Positions 2,322-54,582 of a DNA stretch of 64,000 bases are shown here, in pieces. The DNA is taken from the NCBI RefSeq assembly GCF_053078305.1, contig NZ_CP166879.1; one strand, written 5' to 3'. The notes below the pieces were generated by a model. It ran no database searches, was not told the DNA's origin, and was given only the letters and a program-made list of their open reading frames with translations. Made by a program: the position numbers and the translations under genes. How positions within the stretch are numbered: position 1 is the stretch's first letter; every line of letters starts with the position of its first letter.

Positions 2322-2323
2322 AC

Positions 2324-2611: not shown

Positions 2612-2614
2612 CAC

Positions 2615-3013: not shown

Positions 3014-3015
3014 GC

Positions 3016-31798: not shown

Positions 31799-31802
31799 GA
31801 CT

Positions 31803-32180: not shown

Positions 32181-32181
32181 T

Positions 32182-32397: not shown

Positions 32398-32521
32398 CGG
32401 GAGAGAGGTGCTGCCCTGATGCCTTCGTTGTATTCTGCGACGCTGTTGGTGCCCGTATTTTGTGCGGGTACCGTACAGAATCACCGCATGAGCCATTGCT
32501 GAGACGCTCACTTTTTTTCGC

Positions 32522-32767: not shown

Positions 32768-33151
32768 GTATGAAAATAAAAACCTCCGGCGGAGTCGGAG
32801 GGGGCAAAAACAGATAGTCCCGGAGTGTATCTGTGTAAATGGTGTTATTGGTATAATAATGGTGGTAAAGACCACGGGAGAATTTATTCATTTTATTCGT
32901 CATGAAATCAACGGTAATAGTGTGTTTCTGTGACGGGAATAAAAAAATACAGCACCGCCGATGACCCGGTGCTGAAAACAGGTTAAATGTAGTGGGCACA
33001 TTTCCGGTAATATCAGGAACAGCATGTTATGGTTATAAAAGCATATACCGGGAGTGTGCCCTGGCACTGTGATGTTCTGGTTGTCTTTTGACCATTTTCC
33101 GGGGACGAAATATAAGCTGTTCTGCGTTAACACTTAATAATGAGAGATTGT

Positions 33152-33601: not shown

Positions 33602-33705
33602 AAGAGCGCCGTCGGTGCAGTTTTTTTCAGCACCCGGTGACACGGAATTTTATATACGGGGCATGTCTGTCTCTTTAATAAATCAGCATATTTACCGGAT
33701 ATCCG

Positions 33706-34425: not shown

Positions 34426-34560
34426 TTTGATTCAGATGCAGAGTGTGCGTTATTCAGAGGAAGAGGCTTAATTTTTATCATCCGGTTTTGAATTTATTGC
34501 TGATTGTCCCTTTGCCTTTGCGCACGCTGTCAGATACCAGTTGTCTGACGGAGTCGCATC

Positions 34561-34956
34561 ATGTACCGACTGTTACTGTATTCCTTCCTGATACTACCGG
34601 TGGCAGCATCTGCCGGTACAACAATTTATACCGATTCGCACCAGCGCCCCATGAACCCGCCAGCAGGTGTTCGTGTTGTCCTGCTTGATGCTCCTGAGCA
34701 GACGCAGGATACATTTTTCGGGGTACTTCCCGCAGAGCCTGCAGAAGCATCTGCCCGTGTCATGGAACGGATGCAGTCGCCTGAATGGCAGTCGTTTCAG
34801 GCAGGGCTTGCTGAACACTACCGTGCATTAGCACATGCCTGGTCCCTTGGACTGAAAAAATATCCGGCTGTGGTTTTTGATGACAGTGAAGTGGTCTACG
34901 GAACCACAGACGTGGTGCTGGCAGAACAACTGCGTACAGGGGGAGGGCAGCCATGA
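34561..34956 (+). CDS. ICE periplasmic protein (DUF1525-like)
   Basis: Signal peptide; position upstream of the TraU-like gene. Confidence 0.45.
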   Translation: MYRLLLYSFLILPVAASAGTTIYTDSHQRPMNPPAGVRVVLLDAPEQTQDTFFGVLPAEPAEASARVMERMQSPEWQSFQAGLAEHYRALAHAWSLGLKKYPAVVFDDSEVVYGTTDVVLAEQLRTGGGQP

Positions 34957-35927
34957 TTTCCTGCACATCACGTCATCGCGCCGGTGTTCTGCTGTTAAGT
35001 ATGGCGGTATTGCCGGTGGCAGAGGCATCGCTGAACACCGCGCAGATAGTGGCCAGTGCAGCCTCACAGAGCTGTATCAGCTGGCGGGTCAGCGGGATTT
35101 GCTACTGGCTGTTCTGCACCAAATTCAGTTGCAAGGTCAGAACATCAGTGAAAGTTTCCCATTATATCCCGGAAGTGGTTGTTTCCACCTATACCGCACC
35201 TGGCGGAAATCCCTGGCGTGAAATGTCGGCGGTCAGCAGTACAGCCGGTGGTCCGGAGAATGCCATAAGCAAAGGTATTGCCGGTCTGTCAGCAGGAGGA
35301 GGGAACCCCGCAGACATGAAGGTACAGGGGGAACGTCGTTCGTCAATCCGTTTTAAATATGCCGATGCAACAGGGCACCCGGCCACCACGCTTATCGGAG
35401 GGATGGTGCCGGGATATTCCTGTGAGTCACCGGTGACACCTTTTGTTCCTTATTTTCTCAGTACGCTTGACAGTATTGCCTGGCGTACAGGACTGCCGGA
35501 GTCACTGTACCCGGAGGCCCTGATCCCCGGTAAACGCGAAATAGGCAGCCAGGAAGAAGAGAATATGTGGGGCAATGTGTATCCCCGCTCCGGGTTCGTG
35601 ACCCAGACAGATGATGATAAAGCTGCTGCGGTGGTGGCCCAGCGGGTGGCTGACATTATCACCCGCACCGGTGAGCCACATGTCTATCAGCCGGTGAAAG
35701 CAGGGAAGAAGGACGGTTACTGGCCACCGGATCCGGTGGAGGAAAATACGGGCACCCGGAACCATAAATGGCAGAGACTGACGCCTTCAGTCTCCACGTC
35801 CTGCGCAGTCTTCCCTGACGGAGAGCATGAAGCGGCTGAAACAGGTAATGCTGCCTTTGCCCTGTGGCAGCCCTACAGTTGCTGCAAGAAACGGGGACAG
35901 ACATTCCTGGGCAGTACGAATTTTTAA
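34953..35927 (+). CDS. TraU-like mating-pair assembly protein
   Basis: Signal peptide; Cys/Trp-rich SCISWRVSGICYWLFC motif typical of the TraU family (from memory). Confidence 0.55.
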   Translation: MISCTSRHRAGVLLLSMAVLPVAEASLNTAQIVASAASQSCISWRVSGICYWLFCTKFSCKVRTSVKVSHYIPEVVVSTYTAPGGNPWREMSAVSSTAGGPENAISKGIAGLSAGGGNPADMKVQGERRSSIRFKYADATGHPATTLIGGMVPGYSCESPVTPFVPYFLSTLDSIAWRTGLPESLYPEALIPGKREIGSQEEENMWGNVYPRSGFVTQTDDDKAAAVVAQRVADIITRTGEPHVYQPVKAGKKDGYWPPDPVEENTGTRNHKWQRLTPSVSTSCAVFPDGEHEAAETGNAAFALWQPYSCCKKRGQTFLGSTNF

Positions 35928-35937
35928 GTAAGGGGAA

Positions 35938-37362
35938 GTGATGAAACAGAAAATGACGATACCTGTTCTGGCTGTGGTGCTTTGTGCGGGTACGGTACAG
36001 GCTGACGGAAACTTTTTGTCCCTGCCGAAAGTGAATGACAGTGCGTTTGGCTACGGTAAATCCGTGGACGGCGCAGTATCAGACAAACTGTTTTATACCC
36101 TGGGAGGGGGCTCGGTGATATCGCAGCCGGCAACGCGCAGCAATATGCAGAAACTTGGGGTGGATCTCGGGTGGAGCAGTGATCTGATGTGTGGCAATTT
36201 TGACCTGAAAACAACAGTGGGTAACCAGCTGAACGGGATCACTGATGGTTTCAAAAACCTGATGGGGGATGTGATTCAGGGGGCGAGCGGAGCCGTGGCG
36301 AGTCTGCCGGCAATGGTGATACAGCGGGCTAATCCGGGGCTGTATGACATGCTGACCAACGGTGTACTGCAGGCGAATGTGGCATTCGACAAAGCGCAGC
36401 TCAATTGTCAGAACATGGCGAAACGCATGATGGAGTTCACGGACAGCAATAAGTGGACGCAGGCGGCCATGCTCGAGGAGTACAAAAAAATTGTGAATAC
36501 GGGGGACGGTGATGCGATCAAAGGGGATGAAGCAGGTCGTCAGGTTACCGGGGAGGAGGGGCAACGCTGGATCGGAGGGCAGCAGCGTGGTGGAGCGGGA
36601 CAGTCTGCTATCCGGCCGACACATGATCTGACAGCTGCCGGTTTCAATATGATGAACAGTCTGCCTTCGACCAGTACATCCAGTGTCAGTCCCGGGAACT
36701 GTAACGGGAGTGCCTGCATGAAATACCGTAATGCAGAGGAAGCTGCCCGGGCGGTGGTGAAGGTTCTGGGGGATAAATCCATGCGGACCTGTGGTGATGC
36801 AAAGGCATGTACCAGCGGGGATGCTGATCAGCAGCCGGGGACCAGTATTGCCGGCACGGGGTTTGCGCCGATGCTTGAAGAAGCGACGCGGGTTAACACG
36901 GAACTGCTGGCAGGTATGGTCAATGGTCGTGACAAGCCGACAGCCGGGAATCTGGCAAAACTGAAAGCCGGGAGTCTGTCTGTGACAGCGGGAGTGATCC
37001 GTGCCCTGCAGCGTGATCCGGACAATGGTGCCCTGACGTCGCGTCTGGCGGGAGAACTGGCCATGGCGGATACCGTTGAAACGGCGCTGCTGATGCGCAG
37101 GATGCTGCTCACGGGGATGGCCGAGCCGTATGCTGCAGCTCAGCCTGCTGCACTGGAAGAGGGGGAACGCCGTATTGAGGCGCTGGATCGGGAAATTATG
37201 GCGCTGAAAAACGAGATGGAGCTGAAGCGGGATCTGGCGCGTAACAGTGTTCTGACCATCATTGAACGGGATAACGAGCGTGTGGGGAATAACCCGATGA
37301 TCCAGCAGGCTGACAATGCTGACAGCCGTATCCATTCTCTCGATGCCCCGGATAAGGAGTGA
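35938..37362 (+). CDS. ICE periplasmic protein (PFL_4711-like)
   Basis: Signal peptide; 474 aa; conserved position between the TraU-like and TraG-like genes. Confidence 0.45.
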   Translation: MMKQKMTIPVLAVVLCAGTVQADGNFLSLPKVNDSAFGYGKSVDGAVSDKLFYTLGGGSVISQPATRSNMQKLGVDLGWSSDLMCGNFDLKTTVGNQLNGITDGFKNLMGDVIQGASGAVASLPAMVIQRANPGLYDMLTNGVLQANVAFDKAQLNCQNMAKRMMEFTDSNKWTQAAMLEEYKKIVNTGDGDAIKGDEAGRQVTGEEGQRWIGGQQRGGAGQSAIRPTHDLTAAGFNMMNSLPSTSTSSVSPGNCNGSACMKYRNAEEAARAVVKVLGDKSMRTCGDAKACTSGDADQQPGTSIAGTGFAPMLEEATRVNTELLAGMVNGRDKPTAGNLAKLKAGSLSVTAGVIRALQRDPDNGALTSRLAGELAMADTVETALLMRRMLLTGMAEPYAAAQPAALEEGERRIEALDREIMALKNEMELKRDLARNSVLTIIERDNERVGNNPMIQQADNADSRIHSLDAPDKE

Positions 37363-37366
37363 GAGG

Positions 37367-37708
37367 ATGAGCAGAATTTATGGCCGGGTGAAAAAGAGGA
37401 TGAAGGTATTCGCCCTGTATACGCTGTTGCTGACAGGGATTACCGTGTTTTCCCTCTGGCTGGCCGATACCGGTATACGTCACGCAGAAGGATTTGCGGC
37501 CCTGCGGGAGTGGATGTATGAGACACGTTATGGCTGGCTGGGATGGCGTCTGTGTCTTTACAGTGCGATCGGATGGCTGGGGTGGAGGATCTGGCATGCG
37601 CCGGGGTTCAGGGCAGAATACCGGGCTTCTTTTCTGCGTATGGCCACAGTCAGTGTTCTGTTTATCCTGCTGTGTGAATACGCCATTTTTGCTGAGCCGG
37701 GGCGTTGA
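37367..37708 (+). CDS. membrane protein (113 aa)
   Basis: ATG after GAGAGG; three TMs. Confidence 0.45.
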   Translation: MSRIYGRVKKRMKVFALYTLLLTGITVFSLWLADTGIRHAEGFAALREWMYETRYGWLGWRLCLYSAIGWLGWRIWHAPGFRAEYRASFLRMATVSVLFILLCEYAIFAEPGR

Positions 37709-37714
37709 GCAATC

Positions 37715-39233
37715 ATGACCACAAATAACTATCTGGAATATTTTCTGACTCTGCTGGGCTGGGTGGTGAATAACGGTCTGTGGAATGTGTTGATCAGCAC
37801 AGGACTGTTTGCCCTGCCACTGGCATTCAGGATCATCGGGATCTGGCTGAAAGTCAGGGAAGAAGGTGCGGATGAGGGAAACAAAGGGATGCTTTCCCTG
37901 CCGCGTATTGAGCATGTTCTCTATGGTGCTTTTTTTGTGATGATATCCTGCTGTGTTCCTCTGGTACAGGTGACGCTGGATACGCTGTCATTCGATAAAT
38001 CCAGGGCACAGACCTGTGGGGTATGGACACCTGAAGAGCCCGGAGAGACGGGGTACAGTGGGGTGATCAGCAGTATAGGGGATCAGACTGCTGCAGCCCC
38101 GGTATGGTGGGTGGTGGTTCATAAATTGTCGAAAGGTGTCACCCAGGCGGCAGTGGCTTCGATTCCGTGCCGGCCTGATTTGCGCCAGTTGCGTTTTGAG
38201 ATCCAGCGAACGTTTATAGAAAACAGGGCACTTGCTGATGAGCTGCAGGACTTTATGAACGACTGTTATTCACTGGCACTGTATGTGGAAACAGCGTGAT
38301 CAGGGGCAGAGTAAAGATAAAAAAGTGCTTGATGATATCTCCTGGATAGGGAGCGCCACATTCATGCAGGGGGATTACGGGACGCTGCAGTCAAAGATGC
38401 CGCGGGCTGCGTTCCCGTGGAATACAGCACGTGACAGCGGACGACCGGATACGGGGCGGGGAGGCTATCCGACATGCCGGGAGTGGTGGAGTGACAGTAG
38501 TGTGGGGCTGAAAAAACGGGTCATGGAGGAGGTCAGTGACCATTACTGGTTACGTCTGTCAGCTGCAATGAAGATGATTGGCAGTAGTCAGGTGGATTAT
38601 AAGGAGGAGGTGATCAAGCGTCTGGTGAGTCCGGCAAACCTGACGCTCTCTCAGGGGGGAGAGGTGTATCGTGGCTATGGTGGCAATGCAGATATGACGA
38701 CTATGAATGCGGTGGCCCGGATTGCGGGAACGGCGGGCAGTGCGGTAGCAGCACTGGGTGCGTTTCCGGCACTGGATGCAATGCGGCAGGCACTGCCGAT
38801 GGTACAGTCGATAATACTGATGGCGATTTACATCATGATACCGCTGATTCTGGCGTTTGCGGCATATGAACTGTCGACGTTAATCACACTGACGTTTGTG
38901 GTGTTTGCGGTACACTTTCTGACGTTCTGGTGGGAGCTTGCACGGTGGCTTGACAGCTGGATGCTGACGGCGCTGTACAGTTCGGATACACATACCCGGT
39001 TCAATATGATGGGATTCCAGAACACATCGGATGATCTGATAATGAATCTGGTGATGGGGACAATGTTTCTCGTCTTGCCGGCAGTGTGGCTGGGTGCGTT
39101 GTCCTGGGCTGGGGTGAATATGGGCTCTGTGGTTGGTGATACTTTTGGAAAAAGTACAAGTCATACCTTTCAAGCTGCATCAAAAAGTGGTGATCTTGCA
39201 TCTAGTGGAATTTCAAAAGGTATGAATAAATAA
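37715..39233 (+). pseudogene. traG: TraG-like (F-type TraG N-terminal domain) mating-pair protein, split into two frames
   Basis: 194-aa and 316-aa ORFs overlap at 38283-38299 in different frames. The downstream frame is open only from 38259 and ATG 38283 has no RBS. The two sum to about 510 aa, the size I recall for intact homologues. Confidence 0.5.
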
Positions 39234-40588: not shown

Positions 40589-41683
40589 TTAGTTTTTAGT
40601 TTCCAACGGTGGTAATTTTTCAAGTGTCAGTAGTTCCTGCCCCTTTACCCGACGGCATTGGGAAGCTGCATCCTGAAGTTTTTCGCGAACGTTATTATCA
40701 TAGTCGGGATCCAATAGTTGGTATTGAAGACTATCTTTGTATGATTGAATGATATTTAGTGGACAGATAAGGCGTATATCACCGAGTGAATAAAGTTTTA
40801 CTGCCTTAAGTAAATAGTATTTTTCATCTGAAGAGCGAGCACTCTGCCAGGCTGAGTTTCTGAAATATTCAGCAGGATATGAGGTGGTCGGTATTCCATA
40901 AACATGAGGAGTCAAGTCCATGATTCCTGATATTTTAAGGAAAATAGTTAGTATTAGAGCTGGAACCATATGCACAAACGTAAAAATGAAGGCTAATATT
41001 CCAGCCATGATTCCGCCAGTCACAATTACCTGATTTAGCAAGCTGGTGCGGGTTCTTAACCTGAGGAAAACAATACAGGGAATAAGTGAAAAAATAATCA
41101 GAAGAATTGATAATACTATAACACTCAACACCTGCCAGAACTCGTTTATTCCTTCCGGGAATTCCAACGTATGAAGAAATAACTCAAGAGGAATAATATA
41201 TATGCAGGCTGCGTGGGTGAATAGCGTTGACTGTACAATATGCATGGAAAGAAACTTTTTGATCTGCTTCCACTTACCCTCTGTGCTTATCTGTCTATAA
41301 GTAATAGAGCCATTGAGACACAGAGAAAGTATAAAACTGCAAATCCAGATAATGCTTAACTGAAGTAGCACATATTGTTCAATTTCTTTTCCTGCGTTGT
41401 ACATGAGGAAAAAATAACCAAAAAATATCAGTGTTGATAATAGCGAGGTCAGAAGAACGATTTTGATGTTGTTTTCCGTCAGTTCATTCCGGAAATCACT
41501 TTCCCCTGGATAATTGGAAATATAGAATCCTGCCACTAGTGAGGGCATAAATAACGCCATGCAAAATAGGAGTACGCTGATACAAGCAAAGACCATCAGA
41601 TAACTGAACAATGATGAAAAAGAAATACTGTCAAAAAAAAGTCCTGTTTGTCCAATACGCGCAAGATGTGACCATATAAACAA
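40589..41683 (-). CDS. polytopic membrane protein (364 aa), unknown function
   Basis: About 8 hydrophobic segments plus a roughly 90-aa soluble C-terminus; AT-rich. Confidence 0.5.
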   Translation of the reverse strand: MFIWSHLARIGQTGLFFDSISFSSLFSYLMVFACISVLLFCMALFMPSLVAGFYISNYPGESDFRNELTENNIKIVLLTSLLSTLIFFGYFFLMYNAGKEIEQYVLLQLSIIWICSFILSLCLNGSITYRQISTEGKWKQIKKFLSMHIVQSTLFTHAACIYIIPLELFLHTLEFPEGINEFWQVLSVIVLSILLIIFSLIPCIVFLRLRTRTSLLNQVIVTGGIMAGILAFIFTFVHMVPALILTIFLKISGIMDLTPHVYGIPTTSYPAEYFRNSAWQSARSSDEKYYLLKAVKLYSLGDIRLICPLNIIQSYKDSLQYQLLDPDYDNNVREKLQDAASQCRRVKGQELLTLEKLPPLETKN

Positions 41684-42026: not shown

Positions 42027-42521
42027 CTATCGACAAAAAACCATATTAATTCTTTTGGAAAAAAGAAAATAAGGTATCCATATAACAACACCAAATATTC
42101 CACTCACTAATAATCTGATATTATCTGAATCCAGCTGTACGTCAAAAAGAATAGCCGGTAATAAAGTAAGATAGAGAGCAATAATCAGTCCTGTTGCATA
42201 ATAAGCGATCATGGCTTTTCGAGTTCCTTTTTTGCGTCTGAAAAACAACCACGTTGCATAAAGGGAAACAATGAATCCACATATCAGCAACACAAATGCC
42301 CCCATAGCGTAATAAGATAAAAAGCCAGTTTCATTGAAATAATTGAATGCAGTTATGGTAAAACTGTAAAGTTCAATAGTACTACCAATAACACCCAAGA
42401 TAAGTCCCAGAGCAGGAAGATATAATAGTCCATTAATTTTACTTAACTCTTCTCTTTCACAGGCATCACACAATCCCGACTCTTTGTTTGCTTCTGACAT
42501 TTTACATTTTATACATTCCAT
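42027..42521 (-). CDS. DUF2569-like membrane protein with an N-terminal CxxC...CxxC zinc ribbon
   Basis: CIKC...CDAC followed by four TM helices. The layout resembles YdgK/DUF2569 (from memory). Confidence 0.5.
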   Translation of the reverse strand: MECIKCKMSEANKESGLCDACEREELSKINGLLYLPALGLILGVIGSTIELYSFTITAFNYFNETGFLSYYAMGAFVLLICGFIVSLYATWLFFRRKKGTRKAMIAYYATGLIIALYLTLLPAILFDVQLDSDNIRLLVSGIFGVVIWIPYFLFSKRINMVFCR

Positions 42522-42606
42522 TTTTTATTCCATTATTCATTGCGTTACGATAATGTTTAGTTTTTTAAACATCCCCCACCACATGTATGGGGATTGTTGC
42601 AAATCT

Positions 42607-42862
42607 CACTTAGGATCTGATGGTGTTTTCTTACGGGAGTTAAATTTATCTATTAAATTAAATACTATTGTAGCTAATGTTATTGCTGTTCCTGCTATAC
42701 AACCAAAAACGATAGCTCTTTTAAACTGATTCACTGGAAAATAAAACCCATCACCTTTAAAAAATAAAAGATTGAAACCGCCCCTCCCAGAAATAGTAAC
42801 ATGACTATAGATGATAAACAGCTATAAAGGAACAATATCACATAACTATATAGTTGTTTCAT
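42607..42862 (-). pseudogene. cdiI: orphan cdiI homologue, frameshifted
   Basis: DNA and protein homology to cdiI 43100..43348 in two different frames: N-terminal MKQLYSYVILFLYSCLSSIVMLLFLGGAVSIFYFLK, C-terminal GDGFYFPVNQFKRAIVFGCIAGTAITLATIVFNLIDKFNSRKKTPSDPK. The shift is near A6 at 42759-42764. Confidence 0.65.
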
Positions 42863-43061
42863 TTTTTCTTATCCTCTGACGAACCTTTCGGTTTATTGAG
42901 TTATTGGCTCCTTCAGGTAACTCACCTTTGGCAAGTTTATCCAGTCCTGCCTGCTTCTGTTCCGAGGTGAGATTATTGGCATCAGCATACTGATTCCATG
43001 AGGAAACCGCCTGACCATAACTCACCATTCCTGATGGAAGACTGAGCGAGTTATTCTCAAC
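42846..43061 (-). pseudogene. orphan cdiA-CT remnant (VENN plus about 45 aa of CT, toxin core deleted)
   Basis: VENNSLSL...SSWNQYADANNLTSEQKQAGLDKLAKGELPEG parallels the cdiA sequence VENNALSF...TSWNKYAVDNNLTPEQTQAGLDKIAKGDMPDS, then ends after 17 unrelated codons. Confidence 0.65.
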
Positions 43062-43099
43062 AACAATCCTAACCGCAAAGGTTGGGATTGTTGTTAATC

Positions 43100-43348
43100 T
43101 CACTCAGGATCTGATGGAGGTTTTTTACGAGAATTAAACTTATCGATCAGATTAAAAACTATCGCTGCTAGTGTTATCGATGTACCTGCTATGCACCCAA
43201 ACACAATAACTCTTATCATTTGGTGGGTCGGGAAAAAAAAGAATCCTTTTGTTAGGTAAATAAATAAAGCTCCTCCCCCCATCAAAAGAAATCCACTGAT
43301 GATACAAAAGAGGCATGCATATATGAACAATACAATGTAAGCAATCAT
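43100..43348 (-). CDS. cdiI: CdiI immunity protein (82 aa, integral membrane)
   Basis: 4-nt overlap with the cdiA stop. Hydrophobic helices IVLFIYACLFCIISGFLLMGGGALFIY and VIVFGCIAGTSITLAAIVF. Confidence 0.7.
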   Translation of the reverse strand: MIAYIVLFIYACLFCIISGFLLMGGGALFIYLTKGFFFFPTHQMIRVIVFGCIAGTSITLAAIVFNLIDKFNSRKKPPSDPE

Positions 43349-46300
43349 TTCCCCTCCTCCTTCTTCGCGCTAGAAGAGAACTGATTATTACTACTTGCTT
43401 CTTTTATATATCCACCAAGAAATTCACTACCAAAAGATCCTGTCGCATCAAATATAAATCCCGGAAACTCTTTCCCAGTAACTGAGTTTACTATTCCGGG
43501 AGCATATACTCCAAATGCTCCACCCAATCCGGCCCCGGCAGCAGCCCCTCCAATAGAGCCTGTATTTGGACCATCGGTAAAGAATGCACCACCCATCGCA
43601 ATTCCGACGTTTTGTCCGACAGTTCTCCCCGGCGCAAGCATACCCGCAATGCCTGAACTGGCACTGCTTTTCCAGTCCCAGTTTTTGTTTTCATTACCTG
43701 GCTGGCTTAAATCAAACCACTGGTAACTTCCATTGGCTATCTCCGCGACGACTCCACCACTGACCATTTTACCGACCGAAGCAGCAGGCCCCAGATACCA
43801 TGCCCCGGCAATCATTACACCATCCTGATATCCATCCACGATCACTTTCGTGATATTGGTGCTGTCCGGCATATCACCTTTCGCTATCTTATCCAGTCCA
43901 GCCTGTGTTTGTTCCGGTGTCAGATTATTGTCCACCGCGTACTTGTTCCATGATGTAGCCGCAGCAGCATTGCTTTCAAAACCATCACCGAAGCTGAGCG
44001 CATTATTCTCAACCGTCGTCTTACCTGACTGTGCTCCGGCTACCGCTGAAGCTCCCGAATCTCCCACCAGACCACCGGCCAGGCCGGCAGCAACCGTTGC
44101 CAGTGTCGAGACCGTCTGCTTCTCTGTCCCGCTCAGTTCACTCACCGGCTTACCGTACATCTGTGTGGCTATCATTCCCACCACCTCGCCGGTGGCTGCG
44201 CCTGCGGCACCAGCCAGAGCATTCTTACCCTGTGCCAGAGACAGGGCTGCATTCACTACTGCATGAGCTGCCACACGTCCCGCACCGTCCGGGGTGGTCT
44301 GTTTGATAATTTCAGCAATATACGGTGCTGCACCACCTGCCAGGGCTGCACTCAGATTACCGCCGGCCAGCCCCTGTACTGCTGCCGTTGCGGCCTGTAT
44401 CGCCTGCTGGTATTTGCCTCCCGTTCCAAAACCTGAGGCCGCCATACCGTTATTGTAGGCCCGCTGCGCCACATCCTGTTCCGTGAACGGTTTTCCTGCT
44501 GCCTCAAGCTCCTCACGGGCCTGATTCAGTGCTGCCGGGTCCCGCTTCGCTTTCTCACCAGCTATCTGGCCTTCCGTTCTGGCAATATCTGCCACCTGGT
44601 TACCAATCTCACCAATGAGCTGCGCCTGCTGCAGTCGCTGCTGCTCTTTTTCCCTGTCAAAGATGGGGGACAGCGTCTGGTTTGCATGTGCTGCGTCACG
44701 GTTCAGGTCTGCCACATCCTGTTTCTGGCTCTGCGTATCCCGGATGGTGATATTCCCGGCAGACACAGCCGACTGAGTGGTGCTTTCTGCATGGCCTTCA
44801 TGATTTGCACCAACCAGCAGATTGTTGGCCATATTTCCCGCGAACTGGCCACCGATGCTGCCGCCAGTGCTGATACCCACGCTCTGGTGTTCAACTTTGT
44901 AATCAGCACGATTTTCGATATCACGGAAGCCCAGTGTACCGGTATCCAGCCGGTTTTTATCTGCCGTTGCCGTGGACGCAATCACCGCACCGTTCAGTTG
45001 CGTATGCTGTCCGGTGGTGACATCAAACCCGCCCCTGCCGGCAAAAATCCCCGTCTGCTCCTGCACACTGTCATAGTTACTGTGCATTTTATCCCGGCTG
45101 AGGCTCACACTCGCCGAACCGCTCATGGACCCGAAAGTGAAGCTGCCTCCGGCACTGGCATTCTGCTGCTTACTGTCATAACGGTCACTGTCCTGCTCAC
45201 TGGTCAGTGTCAGATGACGACCGGCATCCACTTTCACCGTTTCACCGCCGGCCTGCACGCCGGTAAGCGTGGTGTCCCGCCCGCTGATAATGGTCAGGCG
45301 GTTTCCCGCATCCACCGTGGTTTCTGTATGGGTGGTACCGTTGCCTTTTTCACTGCCCTTACCCTGGTTTGCGCTGGCTGAAACACTGATACCCCAGCCT
45401 CCGGCCCCCACACCGATACCGACACCCACACTGCCGCCACTGGATGAGTTCTTTCCTTCCAGCTTTGACGTGTTTTCTGCTGATACCAGATTCACGTCAC
45501 GGTTTGCCTGCAGCAGAACGTTGTTCCCTGCCTTTATCTGACTGCCCTGTATCGTCAGGTCACCATCCACGTCCTTCACGCCGGAGCCGGTGGCCTGAAT
45601 ACTGAGGTTATTACCTGCGGTCAGGGCGCTGTTCTTCGCCACCGTCTGCTCTGACTGCTGTTCTGATTTCGAAGACTGGCTGCCGTAAGAGAGGCTGATA
45701 CCCACGGCATTGTTATTCTCTTTCTGGTTGCCCTGTGCTTCTGCCAGTCGTCCGGCCTGCACGGCCTGAGCCCCCGAGAGCGCGGCCTTCACCCCCTGCA
45801 GGGCTTCAAGCCGGCTGTTTCCGGCAGATTTCGCCGCCTGCACGGTCTCCACCGTCGTGTTCAGGGCGCTGCCCACTGTGCCGGACAGGGCAAGCGTCAG
45901 ACCGGAGGTTTTCTGCTCCACCGAATGCGTCTGCACATGCCGGTCTGTGACGGCGCTAATGCTGACCTCCTTACCACTGAGTGCCATGTCCCTGCCGGCA
46001 ATCAGGTCAGCACTGTTGGCGCTCAGCCGGTTACCTGCCTGAAGGGAAACATCACCGTGAACACTCCCCACCGTGCTGCCTTTCTGTGTGCTGTCTGTTG
46101 CGGTGTCCGTGACTTTCAGACTCTGGCTGCCCACACTGAATCCCACACCTCCGGAGCTCATCAGCCCGGATTTTTTCTCCTGTTTCAGGTGTGTTTCACG
46201 GTTGCTTTCTGTCAGCGTGCCGATACTCAGGTCATTTCCGGCAGCCAGGGAGACACGGTTATCCCCGGCCACACTGCTGCCCGTGACGTTCAGATTATGT

Positions 46301-49300
46301 CCGGCACTGATACTGACCGTATCCCCGTTCAGTTCACTGCCCGTCATGGTCCGGCGGTCAGTGACATCATGCGTGGTTGTGGTGGTTTTCGATAACATCC
46401 CGCTGCTGCCGGTCACTTTATGGTATTCATCCAGCGAGCGGGTATTCTGTGCACCGGTCAGCGTCACGTCATGACCTGCCATCAGGGCCAGGCCTTTCTG
46501 AGCTGACAGCGATGCCGCCTGTGACGTCATATCCCGTCCGGCGGTCAGCGTGACATCACCGTTACCGGCAAGCGTGCTGCCCGTACTCTGTGTGACGCCC
46601 TGCGACAGACGATTATTTTTATCCCAGATAATATTGTCCTGCGCGGAAGTGGTCACTGTGGAAAGCGTCATATCCCTGCCCGCACTGAGTTGCGTCAGGC
46701 TGTCCTTACCCTGATTCACCACCGTTGCAGCCGTCAGATTCATATCCCGTCCGGCCTGCAGCACCAGTCTTCCCTGGTCGTTCTGCACATACACGCCGGC
46801 CACACTGTCGATACTGGTACGTTCAAAATGGTTCTGTCCGGCGTCGCGCTGTGCCGTACGGGTGGTGGTGGTCAGACTGATATCCCGTCCGGCCATCGCC
46901 AGCAGGCTGTCCGTGGCCTGCAGCAGCCCGCCGGTACTGTTAATATCCGTCCGGGCCGTCAGGCTGACATTTGCTCCCTGAATGGAGCCGGCCTGGTTGT
47001 GAATGTTTTCTGCACTGAGCTGCACGGTCTGCTTCCCGGCCAGTTTACCGCTGTTAAACAGGTCACCATCCAGCTTCATCACCATGTCCCTGCCGGCAAT
47101 CAGCGCACCGGCACTGTTCACATCACCGGGTTTTACACGGGCATACACCTGAGGTACCTGAACTGTCTGCGTGCTGCCGTCCGGCAGTGTCACCGTGGTG
47201 TTAACCAGCCAGACAATATCCCCGGTCAGTAACGCCATCTGCTCAGCCGTCAGCGCCACACCCGGTTTCAGGTTGTATTGCTTACCAAATGCAATACCCG
47301 CATCCATTAATGCCTTAAACTGCTCTTCATCACTGCCGTATCTGTCCAGGTACCGTTGCCCGGTCAGAGCGACAACCTGCTCTCGAATCAGACGCTGCTC
47401 GTAAAAACCGTCTCCCAGACGTTTGAGCATGTTATCCCCGTTCTGAGAAAACGCCTTCTGCATGTAATCACTGCCCAGCCACATCTTCTGGTTCGTAAAA
47501 CGCGGGTCCGTTTCAACCAGATATGGCACATTCACTGCCGGATTTGTTTTAAACAGACTGCTGTCCGGCAGACGGGTATCCGGCCCGGCAACATGGATAC
47601 TGCCCTGAGGTGTGCTGACTTCAAACTGCTGCCCCGGCAACAGAATGACCGGTTCACCGGCAGACACCACCGGGCGAAGCGGTATCCGGTCAGTAGCGGC
47701 TACTGCCGCATCCACATTTCCGGCCTGTCCTGTCTGTACATCCGTTCCCTGTGGCTTCAGAGGAGAAAGCGTGACCTGGCTGCCCTGAATCTGTCCGTGG
47801 CTGGTGAGCTCTCCCGGCTTCAGCGTAATGCTCTGAATTACAGTGGGCGGAGTGTACTGAGAGGTTTTCTCCCCCTGCTTATCCTTTCCTTTTTTCCTGA
47901 TACGGTAATAATACGTGGATGTTCCTGAGTCCGTAACATGCCGCTCGCCACTGACACTGACATTTTCCACGCTTCCTGACGGAATGGTCAGCAGGCCGCC
48001 TGCAACAACCTGACTCTTATCATTAAGCAGTTTGTCTGCCACAATCGTCATGCCGGCACCGGACAGAATTTTTCCCGGGTCGGAGTCTTTTACCCGGGTT
48101 TCTTCCACGGTACGGGTGTAATCATACTGCGTGAATTTATCTCTGGCGCCTTCCGGTGTATGCAGTTTTTTCAGTGAGTTACTGGAATCGTTATCCACAT
48201 AAACGCCCGGTTCACCGGCGCTCCAGCGTTTATCTGAGCCGCTGAGCTGATACTCAGTCACCTTTTCCGTGGAAACCACCACGCGCTCCGTGGTGAAATG
48301 GTCATTGACGTTATTGATTTGTCCGGCACTCAGTACCAGATATCCGGCGGCTTCAATAGTGGCACTGTGATTATTCAGTACACCGGCTTTCCCCGTGGCG
48401 GCACCATTCGCATCCAGCATGCCACCAGTATGCATATCACCTGCACTGTAAATCAGGCTGTGCGTCCGGTTATTCAGGGTCTGTACCCCTAAGTCCACAC
48501 GCTCACGCCCGGCCAGCGTCGCCGCCACGCCATTTTCTTCCAGATTATTAAATGTGGCAGCGCTGACACCAACAGCATCGCCGTAGATTCGCCCGGTACC
48601 GGAATTCGTCAGGGTGTTCGCCTGAAGATGCGTATATTTCCCGTCAATCAGCCCACGGTTCAGCAGTGTGTCCGTCACGTTAAGCCAGGTCTGCCCGGCA
48701 CTGATTTCACCTTTCTCTGTGTTTTCAAGGCGGATGCTGTTCAGGTCAAGCCGGCTGCCTGCCAGCAGGCTGCCGGTATTAGAGACATCGCCATTAACGG
48801 AAAGCGTAAGGTTTCCGTTCGCAATAGTCTGACCACTGTTGCTGAACGTTGTGTTACTTTTCAGCGTCATATCGCCCAGCGAAAGCAGTTTCCCGTCACC
48901 ACCGAGCTGACCGGCATCCACAGATACTGACTGCCCGGCCTTAACCACGCCGTCACGGTTCGAAAACGCCAGCTGACGGCCACTGACAGACAATGTCGCG
49001 CCGGAAGAGAGGACGCCGTCATTATTACTGAGCGTCCTGTCTGCCATAACCGTAAGCGCCCTGTCTGCCAGAATACTGCCCTCCTGGTTATCAAGGTCCT
49101 GCGTCGTGATGTGTATTGTCTGCGCTTCCAGCCCCTGACCGGTATTCTGCGTGTGGCGATTGATAAACTGCAGGGCGTTCAGCGTAATGGCGGAACCACT
49201 GCGAATCAGACCAGAGACGTTGTCCACAACGCCCCGTACACTGTTGAGCAACATGTCGCCCACAGACTGTATTTGTCCGTGGCTGTTCTGCAGACCTCCC

Positions 49301-52290
49301 GTATGCAGACGGAGTTCACCTTCACTGACCAGCCGGCCCCCCTCACGGTTATCCAGCGAGGTGGTGCTCAGGTCAGCTGTCGTTTTCGCCCCCACGGTCC
49401 CGCCCCGGTTATCCATTGCTCCGGTACTGACAGTCAGTTCCTGCAGGCTGTTCAGCGTACCGCGTCTGTTATCCAGCGTCTGGCCTGCGGTATTAATGCT
49501 GATACCCCTCCCCTGAATAAGACCGGACTGATTGTTCAGCGCCTGGCTGTTCCAGCCGAGCAGACCGTTTGCCACCATCTGACCGGATGTATTGTTAACC
49601 ACGCCTGCAGTCAGGGACAGAGCATCTCCCGACAAAAGCACACCGGCAGTGCTGTCCAGTGTGCCGGCATTCAGCGTCATCGGACCCTGACTGATAACCC
49701 CGCCCCGGTCACCACTATTACGGTTACTCAGTGTGTCAGCACGGAGATTCAGCGATGCACCGCTCTGTATCAGGCCGCCGGCATCGTTGATGATATCCGT
49801 CGAGGAAAGTGTCAGTGACTGCTGTGCCACCAGTCTGCCGCCCTGATTATCAAACCGTGTGACATCCAGCCTGCTGTTACCGTTGCTGACCACCGTCCCC
49901 TGCTGATTTTCCAGCACACTCAGGTGCGTATTCAGGTCCCCGCCGGCGGCAAGCGCCCCTTCCTGATTACTGACATCACCACCACTCAGCAACATATCCG
50001 TCCCGGCCTTCAGTGCGCCTTTCTGGTTCATCAGCGTACCTGACGATATCTGTAATGACGTCTGACTCCCCAGCACGCCCTGACGGTTATCGAGCGTTCC
50101 GGCGTTCAGGGTCATATCCTTCTGACCCGCCATAAATCCCTGCTGGTTATTCAGCATACCGGCCCGCACTGTCAGGGTACCGGCGCTGCTGATACCACCC
50201 CGTGTTTTCGTGTTCCGGTTACTGAGTACCCCGTCCTGTACATCCAGCGTCATGTCACTGCCGGACTGAATCAGACCATCATCAGAGACCAGTTCGCTGC
50301 CTGACACAGACAGCGTTTTCTGTGAAAGCAGTCTGCCGGACGTATTATCCAGCGCACCATCCAGCGTCACAGACAGCCCGTCAGCCACCACCGTACCCTG
50401 GTGGTTATTCAGATTCCCTGCCGAAATATCCAGCCTGCCGGCGGACTCCATTCGTCCCTCAGTATTGCTGACAGCCTGCTGTGTTTTTATCCTGCCCGTT
50501 CCGGCAGCAGCTGAAATCAGTCCGTTGTCGTTATTCAGCGCCTGTGTATTAATCAGGATGTCACGGCTGGCAAGCAGACGTCCCTGCTGGTTATCCACGG
50601 CGCCGGTTGTCCTCACCTGCAGACTGCCTGACTGCGCCGCCTGCACTTTCCCCCTGCGATTATCAAGGCTCAGTGCATCCAGACGCACCGCGCCATTTGC
50701 CGCAAACAGCCCTTCCCGGTTATCCACGCTTCCCGGCAGACTCAGCGAAAAATCCCCTGTTCCCGTCTGAGTCAGACTGCCTTTACGATTTGACAGGCTT
50801 TGTGCCGATATCTGCAGTGTGTCGGCATTTATCGTGCCACCATTATTGCTGAAGTGCCCGACAGTCCGGGCGGAAAGCGTACCGGCACTCAGTTGCGCAT
50901 TCTGTGTGGACAGATTTCCACTGGTTGCATCCAGCTCAGTATGTTGTCCCTGTATCCGGCTGTTGCTTAAATCCAGCCCCTGCCCCTTCAGTTGCATGTC
51001 CCCACCGGACAGAACCTGTCCGTGTGCCGCCAGTTCGCCGGTGGTACTGACAGTCAGGTTGCCCGCTGCCGCCAGACGTCCGTCATCTTTCACCCCGGCG
51101 GCCAGCAGACTCCGCTCACCGCCGGTCAGACGCGCTGTCTGAATCCGGGTGTTGCGACGTGATGCCACAGAGCCTGTATGGGTGAAGACACCATCACTCT
51201 GTATCTGCGTATCCTGCCCCGCATAAACAGAACCACTGTTATGCAGCTCCCGGGTTGTCGCCAGATGCACATCCGTTTTCGCACTGATACTGCCACTGTT
51301 TTCAATACGTCCGTCAGCCGTCAGGGTAACCGCCCCTGCCTGTGCACCAATATGACCGGCGTTACGAACACCCACCCCCGTTTCCGTACCGACAAGGCGA
51401 ATTTTTCCGGCATACATTCCGCCAAGACTGGCCACATCCAGTGCCATCTGAGGCTGTGAAGAGACATCACCGGTCTTTTTCTCAATCTGCCCGTGCGCGA
51501 TATCCACATTGTTACGTCCTGTGGTCACTTTCAGATCCTGCGCCCAGATACCCGCATTAATCTTCACAGACCGGGCAATGATATCGGTATAATCCGTGCG
51601 CGAGGCATCCATCCCTTTGCCCGTAACCTGAATCTCACCACGTTCAACACTGAATCCGGTCAGACTGCCGTTTTTCATCTGCGGCTGCCCCGTGGTCAGC
51701 GTGGCCCGGTTCGCATTAATAAAACCGCACCCGTCGCAACTGATGCCGGCCGGGTTCGCAATCACCACCTGCGCCTTTTTACCGGCAACCTCAACAAAAC
51801 CGTTCAACTGGCTGGGATTGCGACTGTTCACTTCATTAAGAATGATTCTGGCCTCTCCCTTAGCCAGCCACGGGTTCCCGGCCACCATGCCACCCAGTTG
51901 AGTCTGCACATTGTTATGGGCATTATTCAGAATGACGCCCTGGTTACCGACGTCGAACTGGCTGTATGCGTTATGTGAAACCCCGCCGGCAGAAGGCGTC
52001 TGAATATTCACCTGCGGAATGCCGCTGGCCGTCTGCGTAATCGTGGGCTGCTGATACCCTGGTGCGCCATGGTCTGCGACAATGCCTGCAGCACTGACAG
52101 AATGCACCATCCCCGAAGCCAGCCACAAAGAGAATGCAAGCGGCGTGACACGGCAGATACGTTGCCTGTGTGGATATCCTGTGCGGGAGGACAGTGATGT
52201 ACCGGCGCGACCGGAACGGGCAATATCTGCCACCACCATCAGCATTCCCCGGGCTTTGTTAAAAATAATGCGGTAACAATTTCTGTTCAT
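43345..52290 (-). CDS. cdiA: CdiA contact-dependent inhibition exoprotein (2981 aa)
   Basis: ESPR signal MNRNCYRIIFNKARGMLMVVADIA; TPS domain (NAYSQFDVGNQGVILNN, IANPAGISCDGCGFINA); long FHA-type repeats; VENN at 44002-44013 followed by a 218-aa CT. Confidence 0.95.
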   Translation of the reverse strand: MNRNCYRIIFNKARGMLMVVADIARSGRAGTSLSSRTGYPHRQRICRVTPLAFSLWLASGMVHSVSAAGIVADHGAPGYQQPTITQTASGIPQVNIQTPSAGGVSHNAYSQFDVGNQGVILNNAHNNVQTQLGGMVAGNPWLAKGEARIILNEVNSRNPSQLNGFVEVAGKKAQVVIANPAGISCDGCGFINANRATLTTGQPQMKNGSLTGFSVERGEIQVTGKGMDASRTDYTDIIARSVKINAGIWAQDLKVTTGRNNVDIAHGQIEKKTGDVSSQPQMALDVASLGGMYAGKIRLVGTETGVGVRNAGHIGAQAGAVTLTADGRIENSGSISAKTDVHLATTRELHNSGSVYAGQDTQIQSDGVFTHTGSVASRRNTRIQTARLTGGERSLLAAGVKDDGRLAAAGNLTVSTTGELAAHGQVLSGGDMQLKGQGLDLSNSRIQGQHTELDATSGNLSTQNAQLSAGTLSARTVGHFSNNGGTINADTLQISAQSLSNRKGSLTQTGTGDFSLSLPGSVDNREGLFAANGAVRLDALSLDNRRGKVQAAQSGSLQVRTTGAVDNQQGRLLASRDILINTQALNNDNGLISAAAGTGRIKTQQAVSNTEGRMESAGRLDISAGNLNNHQGTVVADGLSVTLDGALDNTSGRLLSQKTLSVSGSELVSDDGLIQSGSDMTLDVQDGVLSNRNTKTRGGISSAGTLTVRAGMLNNQQGFMAGQKDMTLNAGTLDNRQGVLGSQTSLQISSGTLMNQKGALKAGTDMLLSGGDVSNQEGALAAGGDLNTHLSVLENQQGTVVSNGNSRLDVTRFDNQGGRLVAQQSLTLSSTDIINDAGGLIQSGASLNLRADTLSNRNSGDRGGVISQGPMTLNAGTLDSTAGVLLSGDALSLTAGVVNNTSGQMVANGLLGWNSQALNNQSGLIQGRGISINTAGQTLDNRRGTLNSLQELTVSTGAMDNRGGTVGAKTTADLSTTSLDNREGGRLVSEGELRLHTGGLQNSHGQIQSVGDMLLNSVRGVVDNVSGLIRSGSAITLNALQFINRHTQNTGQGLEAQTIHITTQDLDNQEGSILADRALTVMADRTLSNNDGVLSSGATLSVSGRQLAFSNRDGVVKAGQSVSVDAGQLGGDGKLLSLGDMTLKSNTTFSNSGQTIANGNLTLSVNGDVSNTGSLLAGSRLDLNSIRLENTEKGEISAGQTWLNVTDTLLNRGLIDGKYTHLQANTLTNSGTGRIYGDAVGVSAATFNNLEENGVAATLAGRERVDLGVQTLNNRTHSLIYSAGDMHTGGMLDANGAATGKAGVLNNHSATIEAAGYLVLSAGQINNVNDHFTTERVVVSTEKVTEYQLSGSDKRWSAGEPGVYVDNDSSNSLKKLHTPEGARDKFTQYDYTRTVEETRVKDSDPGKILSGAGMTIVADKLLNDKSQVVAGGLLTIPSGSVENVSVSGERHVTDSGTSTYYYRIRKKGKDKQGEKTSQYTPPTVIQSITLKPGELTSHGQIQGSQVTLSPLKPQGTDVQTGQAGNVDAAVAATDRIPLRPVVSAGEPVILLPGQQFEVSTPQGSIHVAGPDTRLPDSSLFKTNPAVNVPYLVETDPRFTNQKMWLGSDYMQKAFSQNGDNMLKRLGDGFYEQRLIREQVVALTGQRYLDRYGSDEEQFKALMDAGIAFGKQYNLKPGVALTAEQMALLTGDIVWLVNTTVTLPDGSTQTVQVPQVYARVKPGDVNSAGALIAGRDMVMKLDGDLFNSGKLAGKQTVQLSAENIHNQAGSIQGANVSLTARTDINSTGGLLQATDSLLAMAGRDISLTTTTRTAQRDAGQNHFERTSIDSVAGVYVQNDQGRLVLQAGRDMNLTAATVVNQGKDSLTQLSAGRDMTLSTVTTSAQDNIIWDKNNRLSQGVTQSTGSTLAGNGDVTLTAGRDMTSQAASLSAQKGLALMAGHDVTLTGAQNTRSLDEYHKVTGSSGMLSKTTTTTHDVTDRRTMTGSELNGDTVSISAGHNLNVTGSSVAGDNRVSLAAGNDLSIGTLTESNRETHLKQEKKSGLMSSGGVGFSVGSQSLKVTDTATDSTQKGSTVGSVHGDVSLQAGNRLSANSADLIAGRDMALSGKEVSISAVTDRHVQTHSVEQKTSGLTLALSGTVGSALNTTVETVQAAKSAGNSRLEALQGVKAALSGAQAVQAGRLAEAQGNQKENNNAVGISLSYGSQSSKSEQQSEQTVAKNSALTAGNNLSIQATGSGVKDVDGDLTIQGSQIKAGNNVLLQANRDVNLVSAENTSKLEGKNSSSGGSVGVGIGVGAGGWGISVSASANQGKGSEKGNGTTHTETTVDAGNRLTIISGRDTTLTGVQAGGETVKVDAGRHLTLTSEQDSDRYDSKQQNASAGGSFTFGSMSGSASVSLSRDKMHSNYDSVQEQTGIFAGRGGFDVTTGQHTQLNGAVIASTATADKNRLDTGTLGFRDIENRADYKVEHQSVGISTGGSIGGQFAGNMANNLLVGANHEGHAESTTQSAVSAGNITIRDTQSQKQDVADLNRDAAHANQTLSPIFDREKEQQRLQQAQLIGEIGNQVADIARTEGQIAGEKAKRDPAALNQAREELEAAGKPFTEQDVAQRAYNNGMAASGFGTGGKYQQAIQAATAAVQGLAGGNLSAALAGGAAPYIAEIIKQTTPDGAGRVAAHAVVNAALSLAQGKNALAGAAGAATGEVVGMIATQMYGKPVSELSGTEKQTVSTLATVAAGLAGGLVGDSGASAVAGAQSGKTTVENNALSFGDGFESNAAAATSWNKYAVDNNLTPEQTQAGLDKIAKGDMPDSTNITKVIVDGYQDGVMIAGAWYLGPAASVGKMVSGGVVAEIANGSYQWFDLSQPGNENKNWDWKSSASSGIAGMLAPGRTVGQNVGIAMGGAFFTDGPNTGSIGGAAAGAGLGGAFGVYAPGIVNSVTGKEFPGFIFDATGSFGSEFLGGYIKEASSNNQFSSSAKKEEGK

Positions 52291-52305: not shown

Positions 52306-52833
52306 TTATCTCTCCGGCACATCCACAGCAAGCGGGTGCTGCACACGCCACTGGCGCGCCTCTTCACGACTGACCTGTGCACCCCGGAAATTCATCACCC
52401 GTAACCCGGTCTGCTGCCCACGGTGGTACAGCGAACGCCAGCACAGACGGGGAAAAATATCCTGCCGGACAAGACGACTCATATCCGGAGTGTGTCCAAA
52501 AGGGGCAACCCAGTCACAGACCCACATCCGGTCGCCGCTGTTCCAGTCCGACTGAGGCATGAGAATTGCCGGCTGCGTAAGATAACGCGCCTCTGCCTCC
52601 GGGCTGAGCCAGGCCTGGCTCATGAAGAAAACCGGTCGCCCCTGCTCTGTTGCCACCACATACTGTCGGTGCTTAATCACCGGCAGCTGCAGGTCCGGCA
52701 GGGTATGCAGTGGCGCATCACGATGCAGGGGGGAGTGCATCCACAACCAGACGGCCGCCCCCAGGACTTCCGCCTCATTGACCGGCTCACCGGAATACAG
52801 GGGACTCAGAACGTCATATTTCCCGTTACGCAT
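52306..52833 (-). CDS. cdiC: CdiC, HlyC/TAAT-family toxin-activating lysine acyltransferase
   Basis: LGAAVWLWMHSPLHR, WNSGDRMWVCDWVAPFG parallel the HlyC motifs LGHVSWLWASSPLHR, WTSGDRKWFIDWIAPFG. Located between cdiB and cdiA. Confidence 0.85.
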   Translation of the reverse strand: MRNGKYDVLSPLYSGEPVNEAEVLGAAVWLWMHSPLHRDAPLHTLPDLQLPVIKHRQYVVATEQGRPVFFMSQAWLSPEAEARYLTQPAILMPQSDWNSGDRMWVCDWVAPFGHTPDMSRLVRQDIFPRLCWRSLYHRGQQTGLRVMNFRGAQVSREEARQWRVQHPLAVDVPER

Positions 52834-52842: not shown

Positions 52843-54582
52843 TCAGAAATCCCGGAACAGATTAAAACCGGCTGTCACATCACTCGTCATAAAACCCGCC
52901 GGCTTTGAAAACGGACGACCGATGAAAACGTCATAATCCGTACTGAACAGTTGCCCCCTCAGCCCCACAACACCACCGGCCAGATGACGTCCCACCAGAT
53001 ATTCACTGCCGGCTCCCCCCACCTCGCCGTAATCCATTCCCAGATATAACGCCTGCTCCGGCAGTGGCGTACGCCAGGCCAGGTCGTTGCGGATATACCA
53101 GCCGTTACTGGCATTCAGCGTTCGCTCCCCGTCAAAACCACGAACCGTCCAGCGGTTACCGATGGCAAACTGTTCCTGTGGGGTCAGCGGGGTATTGCTC
53201 AGCTGGCGCTGATACCGGAAGGAATAACTGAAGGGCTGCTCTGCCAGTGTAAAGGGCAGATTAAAGGATGCATTCATCTGCAGGATCTTACTGAGCGCCG
53301 TTGCCTCACCGAAGATTTCCTCCGGTGCCGGCTGTGCACCAAACCAGCGGGTTCCCCGTTGCCAGCTGACACCAGCATCCAGTGTGGCCTGAGAAATATA
53401 ATGACGGTGCTGCAGCCCAAGTCGCCAGGCCGCTGTCTGCCGGCGCTGCACCTGGATTTCCGTATCATTAATGTAGTTACGCGACCTGCGGGCCTGAACA
53501 TCGTAAGTCAGCACCGTTTTCTGCGTCCCGTTACGATGCAGTACCCGGCTCAGCTGCATGCCCAGATTCTGACTCTCGCCACTGTACTGGTAATCCTCAA
53601 CCGCACCAGCTACCGTCTGATGGTAATCGTAATCACTGGCGGTGACGGAAAACTGCCAGTAACCGAAAGGCACAGAGTAATGGGCCGTGTAGTTTTTACT
53701 GCCCTTACCCCCGTAATGTGGAAAATTATGGGTGGCAGAAACATACAGCAGGTCACTCAGGGAAAAAGGATTATCCAGAGAAAATGTTATACCACCGAGA
53801 TAACGCCCTGTGCTGCGGGTACCTGAATCATCAAGCGAAAACCCCAGTCGCCAGTATTTATCCTGTTTACGGGTAATAAGAATATCACTTTCCCCTGGCT
53901 GCTCACCGGGCACAATTTCCATATCAGCCTGCACACCCGGCAGTCGTTGCATATTCTCCAGCCCCTGCTCAATGTCCCGTAAATCCAGCAGAGAACCTTC
54001 GTGTGCCGGGAATGAGGAATACAACTGAATATAGTCATCACTGTCCGGTGTCAGACGCACATGTCGCACAACACCGGGAATAACAACCAGCCGGAGGATA
54101 CCGCTTTTTAAATCCTGCGAAGGTGCCAGAACACGGGTGGTGACATAACCATGATCGACAAGACGGTTCTGCAATGTACTCATCAGCAGATTAATTCCTT
54201 TCGCCCCCAGGCAATGCCCGACCGCCCCGTTGGCGATTTTTTGTAAAGGCAGCCAGTGTGGTAACGCATCAGCCCCCTTCAGTTCCGTCTGTTTAATCTG
54301 AAAACAGGGCGTTTCAACAGGAAAATTAATCTTATGGGCAAAAGAGCCAGGTGCAGAAAGGCGAACATCAGGGGCTGAAGGCGTCAGTTGTTGCTCAAGG
54401 GCTTCCTGACGCTGCTGCTGAATGATAAATGTATCCTCTCCACTACGCCGGATATCCGCGGCCTGAAGAGATAAAGGCGATAATAAAACAGACATCAGTG
54501 TCAGTGATAAAATGAACGGACAGCGCCGGAATAAGCTTTGTTCCTCAGCCCTCTCGTTCCTGCAACATAATTTTCCAGCCAA
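52843..54582 (-). CDS. cdiB: CdiB TpsB-family (ShlB/FhaC-type) outer-membrane transporter
   Basis: Signal peptide ...[15 protein letters not shown]-type N-terminus, beta-barrel ending in ...GFNLFRDF. Alternative start at M30 (54495). Confidence 0.9.

Follow-up and report, generated by a model that had tools for sequence, protein, structure and literature searches.

Which toxin does a contact-dependent growth inhibition (CDI) protein carry when no family model recognizes its C-terminal end? The case we consider is the cdiA gene in a 64,000-nucleotide stretch of contig NZ_CP166879.1 (NCBI RefSeq assembly GCF_053078305.1), which we call the window, and the short gene for the immunity protein CdiI that follows it. 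An initial annotation, made by reading the letters between 43100 (the end of cdiI) and 44013 (the first base of the VENN codons), had proposed that the C-terminal toxin region (CT) of this CdiA is an ionophore-type toxin of the inner membrane, blocked there by a membrane immunity protein, and had left the toxin without a family name. The proposal is supported, and the family exists: it is that of the α-helical CDI ionophores (toxin type 10), whose founding member is the toxin of E. coli EC93. We conclude, with a probability of about 0.92, that CdiA residues 2764-2981 are a group 3 member of this family acting by the mechanism given below. The features on which the argument depends are the following.

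43345..52290, minus strand: cdiA, 2981 aa, with ESPR signal, two-partner secretion domain, FHA (haemagglutinin) repeats, KKGK site, PT-VENN domain and CT toxin
44002..44145, minus strand: PT-VENN pre-toxin domain (Pfam PT-VENN, 3.7e-18, CdiA residues 2716-2766)
43792..44001, minus strand: helical entry domain, CT residues ~1-70, placed by BLASTP to the EC93 CdiA2-CT and by predicted helices
43348..43791, minus strand: ionophore domain, CT residues ~71-218, a predicted five-helix bundle, placed by the structure model and by hhalign against the EC93 CT
43510..43572, minus strand: glycine zipper G144-G148-G152-G156-G160-G164, mostly within predicted helix α4
43100..43348, minus strand: cdiI, for an immunity protein of 82 aa, its ATG start overlapping the cdiA stop as ATGA

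CdiA residues 2760-2763 (44013..44002) are the VENN motif, which demarcates the toxin and is the presumed site of auto-processing; after it come exactly 218 residues, as the initial annotation had counted. Pfam and NCBIfam scans with the CT and with CdiI gave no match above noise. The type 10 family still has no model in either collection, and automated annotation therefore provides generic labels only: the protein that carries the CT is a 'hemagglutinin repeat-containing protein' and CdiI is a 'hypothetical protein'.

Both the toxin family and the window's own protein are already known. Halvorsen et al. (2024, PLoS Genet) describe a large family of α-helical CDI ionophores related to the CdiA-CT of EC93, each with an entry domain at the N-terminus and, C-terminal to it, an ionophore domain of five helices, and having a glycine zipper in helix α4 as the only motif common to the family (PMC11630599). 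The immunity proteins are two-helix membrane hairpins of 72-100 aa, and the E. coli toxins form six groups by entry domain, two of which (groups 1 and 3) need AcrB (PMC11630599). By exact-sequence look-up, the window CdiA is GenBank KFD79096.1. This accession is present in the S1 Appendix of that paper, where the EC93 PSI-BLAST sheet has it between the labels 'group 3' and 'group 4' (cover 0.95, E 1e-14, 19.63% identity), and the group 3 '94-3024' sheet has it at 64.43% identity (E 2e-56, 2981 aa) (PMC11630599).

Is the window toxin one that has been tested? Very probably it and the CT of E. coli SG17-G18 are one and the same, judging by three sorts of sequence comparison. The SG17-G18 CdiA (HBC0854646.1) has the coverage, identity and length of KFD79096.1 in the EC93 sheet, with an E of 2e-14, and identical figures in the '94-3024' sheet (PMC11630599). 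The 20-nt gene-specific part of primer CH6251 (SG17-18-cdiI-Kpn-for) matches 43348..43329, the first 20 nt of cdiI, exactly and uniquely. The two systems also agree in the 2981-aa length of CdiA, the group 3 entry type and the small size of CdiI, and we detect no difference between them, as judged from BLAST figures, length and primer. Halvorsen et al. constructed a CdiA-EC93 chimera with the SG17-G18 toxin (EC93-CT-SG17-G18) and a cdiI-SG17-G18 plasmid; against CT-SG17 the cognate immunity gene alone protects (their Fig 4D), and ΔacrB targets are resistant (their Fig 4E) (PMC11630599). AcrB was needed by all the group 3 representatives tested, SG17 included, and depolarization, measured with DiBAC4(3) in a flow cytometer, was seen with representatives from each of the groups (PMC11630599).

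The profile, motif and structure tests agree with the accession match. The window CT has 58 close homologues in alignment A1, and the profile made from them, compared using hhalign to the EC93 CT, gives a probability of 96.2% (E 2e-9, 135 columns); both EC93 CTs were translated from plasmid pCP127 (NZ_CP061330). This is the type of profile comparison that the initial annotation had suggested as a check. Searching 1.84 billion representative proteins with the A1 profile using HMMER reports only 194 clusters at E <= 1e-3, among which is an EC93-type CT (E 4e-10). The window toxin has the position of a type 10 toxin, directly C-terminal to the VENN of a CdiA, and a homology to CT-EC93 that is detectable by profile. 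One of the HMMER homologues from outside the window, protein P0151, has an entry domain like that of EC93 (group 1) ahead of an ionophore domain like those of group 3, and is a natural entry-domain swap.

Could the CT instead be an enzyme that we fail to recognize, such as a nuclease, a deaminase or an activity directed at lipid II or peptidoglycan, for which the hydrophobicity of CdiI would be incidental? Nucleases are the majority of E. coli CDI toxins, and a protein that matches no family model leaves room for such a proposal. We find it very unlikely given the hhalign and HMMER homology of the CT to the EC93 ionophore, its Gly/Ala-rich and, by prediction, all-helical nature, and the depolarization that is the published phenotype of the family (PMC11630599). 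A sequence search of the PDB with the CT family profile gave 0 matches, and Pfam, NCBIfam, and PDB sequence and structure searches found no enzyme homology or enzyme fold for the CT. The initial annotation had seen no nuclease-like motif in the CT, and had named enzymatic homology of the CT, or a CdiI outside the membrane, as the observations that would speak against its proposal; what we observe is no enzymatic homology and a strongly hydrophobic CdiI.

The first ~47 residues of the CT are homologous to the entry domain of the EC93 CdiA2-CT, an Ntox25 toxin (49% identity over 47 aa, BLASTP E 5e-12). This homology of the window CT to the entry domain of the AcrB-dependent Ntox25 toxins is the one described for group 3, where it explains the dependence on AcrB (PMC11630599). 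The Ntox25 (PF15530) CDI toxins, among them the EC93 CdiA2-CT and the STEC_O31 CdiA4-CT, are often found on class IV CdiA proteins, and have in common with the window system, besides the entry domain, the AcrB dependence and the outcome of membrane depolarization. It is then reasonable to ask whether the likeness extends to the toxin domain, so that the CT would be a β-barrel pore former of the Ntox25 type (Tse4-like) and not an α-helical ionophore, all the more when a 22-residue Gly-rich stretch of the CT has 55% identity to part of the EC93 CdiA2 Ntox25 domain. We regard this as the least probable of the alternatives, with next to no weight. The Pfam Ntox25 model does not match the CT even at E <= 1, and the predicted structure has only helices, as opposed to the β-barrel predicted for the Ntox25 toxin domain. 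CdiI is a hairpin of 82 aa, about half the length of the Ntox25 immunity proteins (~160 aa). Finally, hhalign using a diverse alignment of the CT (A3, built from matches in the representative library, leaving out the EC93 CT row) assigns a probability of 3% to the Ntox25 toxin part of EC93 CdiA2. By the same measure, homology of the short Gly-rich stretch to the Ntox25 toxin domain is rejected.

The α-helical ionophore reading makes a specific prediction about the structure. In the AlphaFold2 (AF2) model made with A3, the CT is helical throughout, with a mean predicted local distance difference test (pLDDT) score of 75.9 and values of 78-92 across residues 70-180. The entry domain has helices at CT residues 7-24, 29-41, 50-60 and 62-69, and the C-terminal part is a bundle of five helices (α1 76-99, α2 110-122, α3 128-143, α4 147-175 and α5 181-207), that is, the two-domain arrangement of the type 10 toxins, modelled with moderate confidence. 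Using the shallow alignment of 58 close homologues, the model is poor (pLDDT 47.9). The 218-residue CT is thus better described as a ~70-residue AcrB-dependent entry domain and a ~150-residue five-helix ionophore domain, which refines the single toxin region of the initial annotation.

The motif common to the family is also present. The initial annotation had called the CT glycine-zipper-rich and its distal half rich in Gly and Ala, and both descriptions are borne out by counting: the distal half is 22% Gly and 13% Ala, in CT residues 131-170 Gly rises to 32.5% and Ala to 20%, and the 39-aa peptide that had been quoted lies at CT residues 133-171. The CT has six overlapping GxxxGxxxG motifs, compared with 0.9 +/- 1.0 in 2000 composition-preserving shuffles (the fraction of shuffles reaching six is 0.0005), and the register of its glycines exceeds what composition explains. 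The glycines occur in two series, G125-129-133-137 and G144-148-152-156-160-164. A joint alignment places G168/G172/G176 of the EC93 zipper over window residues G156/G160/G164, which are inside predicted helix α4, and these columns are Gly in 45, 44 and 41 of the 49 sequences.

CdiI was described as having two to three transmembrane (TM) helices in 82 aa. The length is right, and there are two hydrophobic stretches (Kyte-Doolittle average over 19 residues >= 1.6, window centres 10-24 and 53-60) followed by a basic C-terminal tail, so CdiI is predicted to have two TM helices and not three. It is therefore what the family leads us to look for, a very hydrophobic two-helix protein within 72-100 aa, encoded immediately downstream of the toxin. 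Its homologues form 66 clusters of unannotated proteins of ~82 aa across Enterobacterales, and the exact sequence is found on 430 public contigs.

What remains is how the toxin is delivered, for which we need three more features.

52843..54582, minus strand: cdiB, the outer-membrane two-partner-secretion transporter for CdiA (Pfam ShlB 1.8e-109, POTRA_2, POTRA_3)
52306..52833, minus strand: cdiC, a lysine acyltransferase of the HlyC family (Pfam HlyC 6.2e-31)
47887..47898, minus strand: RKKGKD, CdiA residues 1465-1470, in a basic, Tyr-rich segment that includes K1466/K1467/G1468/K1469

A lysyl acyltransferase gene between cdiB and cdiA is the hallmark of class IV cdi loci, for which the role of cdiC has been described (PMC8510554), and the gene found in that position here is labelled a 'toxin-activating lysine-acyltransferase' by RefSeq in an identical locus. 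In the class IV protein CdiA-STEC4, Lys1467 is acylated, and the lipopolysaccharide (LPS) core is the outer-membrane receptor (PMC8510554). The window CdiA reads TYYYRIRK(1466)K(1467)GK(1469)DK, with residue numbers equal to those of the site acylated by CdiC in CdiA-STEC4, a correspondence of numbering and motif. Taking cdiC and cdiB upstream together with this K1466-K1467-G-K1469 numbering, the locus is, by sequence, assigned to the class IV cdiBCAI systems.

In the proposed mechanism, CdiB would export CdiA, and CdiC would acylate Lys1467 of the receptor-binding domain, helping it to attach to a neighbouring E. coli cell by the LPS core, as we infer from class IV homology. From general knowledge of CDI, the C-terminal region of CdiA would then enter the target periplasm and be cut after VENN. 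The ~70-residue helical entry domain would use AcrB, in the inner membrane, to place the toxin in the cytoplasmic membrane, as reported for CT-SG17 (PMC11630599, Fig 4E). Once in the bilayer, the ~150-residue Gly-rich five-helix domain, with its α4 zipper, would dissipate the membrane potential and growth would stop, which is extended to the window sequence from the group representatives. In sibling cells, the two-helix CdiI, translationally coupled to cdiA, would bind the ionophore domain in the membrane and block the toxin; contacts of CdiI with helices α1, α4 and α5 are predicted by the AlphaFold multimer models of Halvorsen et al. (PMC11630599).

A different role for AcrB can be imagined, in which the toxin itself does not conduct and turns this proton-driven pump into a proton leak, depolarization then being a property of the complex of toxin and receptor. 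This would account for the observation that receptors are needed for toxicity even when ionophores are made in the cytosol, and that both CT-EC93 and the group 3 CT-U124 can be induced in ΔacrB cells and are tolerated there (PMC11630599). We think it unlikely, if the most plausible of the alternatives, because the ionophore domain is not tied to any one receptor: its homologues function when joined to entry domains for the unrelated receptors SecY, YciB, PuuP/PlaP and DtpA/B, and chimeras of the entry domain of one toxin with the EC93 toxin domain have been built (PMC11630599). The immunity proteins, moreover, are predicted to bind the ionophore domain and not the receptor (PMC11630599).

How far can the assignment as a group 3 ionophore be trusted? 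Several points count against it. The initial annotation had called the distal half of the CT hydrophobic, which holds with a qualification: on the Kyte-Doolittle scale, no 19-residue window anywhere in the CT reaches the usual TM threshold (maximum 1.32), although in predicted helix α4 none of the 29 residues (nine of them glycines) is charged. The AF2 model of the CT, already of moderate confidence, is that of a monomer without CdiI. The identity with the tested SG17-G18 toxin rests on BLAST figures, length and a 20-nt primer, and in one sheet the E-values differ (1e-14 vs. 2e-14). The depolarization assay of Fig 2C does not name its group 3 toxin (PMC11630599), and the leak may be a pore, a carrier or a membrane defect, of one or another ion selectivity and oligomeric state. 

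Comparison to other systems helps to delimit the assignment. The founder EC93 (group 1) resembles the window system in its two-domain helical CT, its aligned α4 glycine zipper and its small two-helix CdiI (79 vs. 82 aa), and its toxin is AcrB-dependent and depolarizing, as for the window's group 3. It differs in overall sequence (~20% identity), in its entry domain, where the PEGQDPARGLL motif is not in the window CT, and in its CdiA, which is class I and binds BamA, as opposed to the class IV cdiBCAI assignment of the window; the two CdiI proteins have no evident sequence similarity in a comparison without formal alignment. The pore-forming colicins and the microcins V, E492 and H47 resemble CDI ionophores in acting between bacteria, in collapsing the potential of the inner membrane and in being countered by small membrane immunity proteins, and these microcins also need an inner-membrane protein as receptor. 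The window CT has no sequence or fold match to the colicin pore domain, which has 10 helices; colicin pores insert free of a receptor and from the periplasmic side only, whereas CDI ionophores are receptor-dependent and toxic from the cytosol (PMC11630599).

A Foldseek search of the CT model, which had been suggested as another check, was run against the PDB and reports nothing significant (best E 1.3). There is a hint that the modelled bundle resembles the Tim17/Tim22/OEP16 fold, a likeness absent from PMC11630599 and the only unpublished point here. It comes from the predicted model only: identity of the CT to the Tim17/Tim22/Tim23/OEP16 (PRAT) proteins is ~10%, and Pfam Tim17 does not match the CT, which by sequence falls outside that family. 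PRAT proteins, unlike the CT, have four TM helices and reside in eukaryotic organelles.

Inferring an ionophore-type toxin from sequence alone was right in this case. The window pair is one of ~30 predicted ionophore-immunity specificity pairs, by which E. coli strains tell self from non-self. Nothing in it alters the current understanding of these toxins.

The composition and distribution of the cassette bear on how it was acquired. GC content goes from ~0.6 ahead of VENN to 0.5 in the CT and to <0.4 in cdiI and past it, a fall of the kind that a swapped-in toxin-immunity cassette would leave. The 3′ portion of the CT (its last ~40 residues) together with cdiI (43100..43470) is found at 100% identity in 5 of 5426 complete E. 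coli genomes, and the carriers are mostly isolates from cattle or food, or designated as Shiga toxin-producing E. coli (STEC). The preceding ~110 residues (CT residues ~68-177, 43470..43800) are commoner, at 83% DNA identity in 33 further complete E. coli genomes, and this difference implies a probable recombination boundary inside the ionophore domain. A rare 3′ end with its cdiI, behind an upstream part of wider distribution, fits the published observation that variation concentrates at the CdiI-binding regions of the ionophores (PMC11630599).

Past cdiI there are the remains of a second, orphan module.

42846..43103, minus strand: orphan cdiA-CT remnant directly past cdiI, with VENN at 43061..43050 and ~45 residues of the same entry-domain type
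42606..42862, minus strand: orphan cdiI with the '1473e' specificity of group 3, opening with the 24 nt of the '1473e' cdiI primer CH6248 (PMC11630599)
43043..43107, minus strand: RNA hairpin, starting within the last codons of cdiI (ΔG -33.6 kcal/mol, z = -8.0 vs. shuffles)

The orphan CT has 72% nucleotide identity to 44013..43874, after which its frame runs into unrelated sequence and ends, so the ionophore domain of this module would have been deleted. The orphan cdiI stays in frame for 43 codons, up to a T6 run near 42760, where the frame is lost; coding resumes in another frame and leads to a C-terminus that has ~90% identity to that of the main CdiI. Either this orphan immunity gene is pseudogenized, or the break is a sequencing error in the homopolymer. 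The 3′ arm of the hairpin is the orphan coding sequence for IVVENNSLS, which includes the orphan VENN codons. Because it has no T-tract, the hairpin is not a canonical terminator, and a scan for intrinsic terminators past cdiI found none; it could stabilize the 3′ end of the mRNA, or mark a recombination junction. A second hairpin, past the orphan cdiI, is not significant (z = -1.75).

The flank of the island, beyond the orphan modules, has three more features.

30000..39230, plus strand: IS66-family elements adjoining the cdi locus, and genes of an integrating conjugative element (TIGR03756/03757 families, TraG N-terminal domain), the latter as annotated in NZ_CP067426, where the region is identical
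40589..41683, minus strand: open reading frame of 364 aa with a TTG start, flanked on one side by the cdi island and on the other by the ykgM/ykgO ribosomal-protein paralogues; it has no Pfam match and is a 'hypothetical protein' in RefSeq
42027..42521, minus strand: gene for a DUF2569 membrane protein (Pfam 9e-34), coming after the orphan modules

In E. coli 2012C-4431, the same DUF2569 gene comes after an orphan Ntox25 toxin. The gene could serve as an orphan immunity gene, or could just belong to the constant flank of the cdi island.

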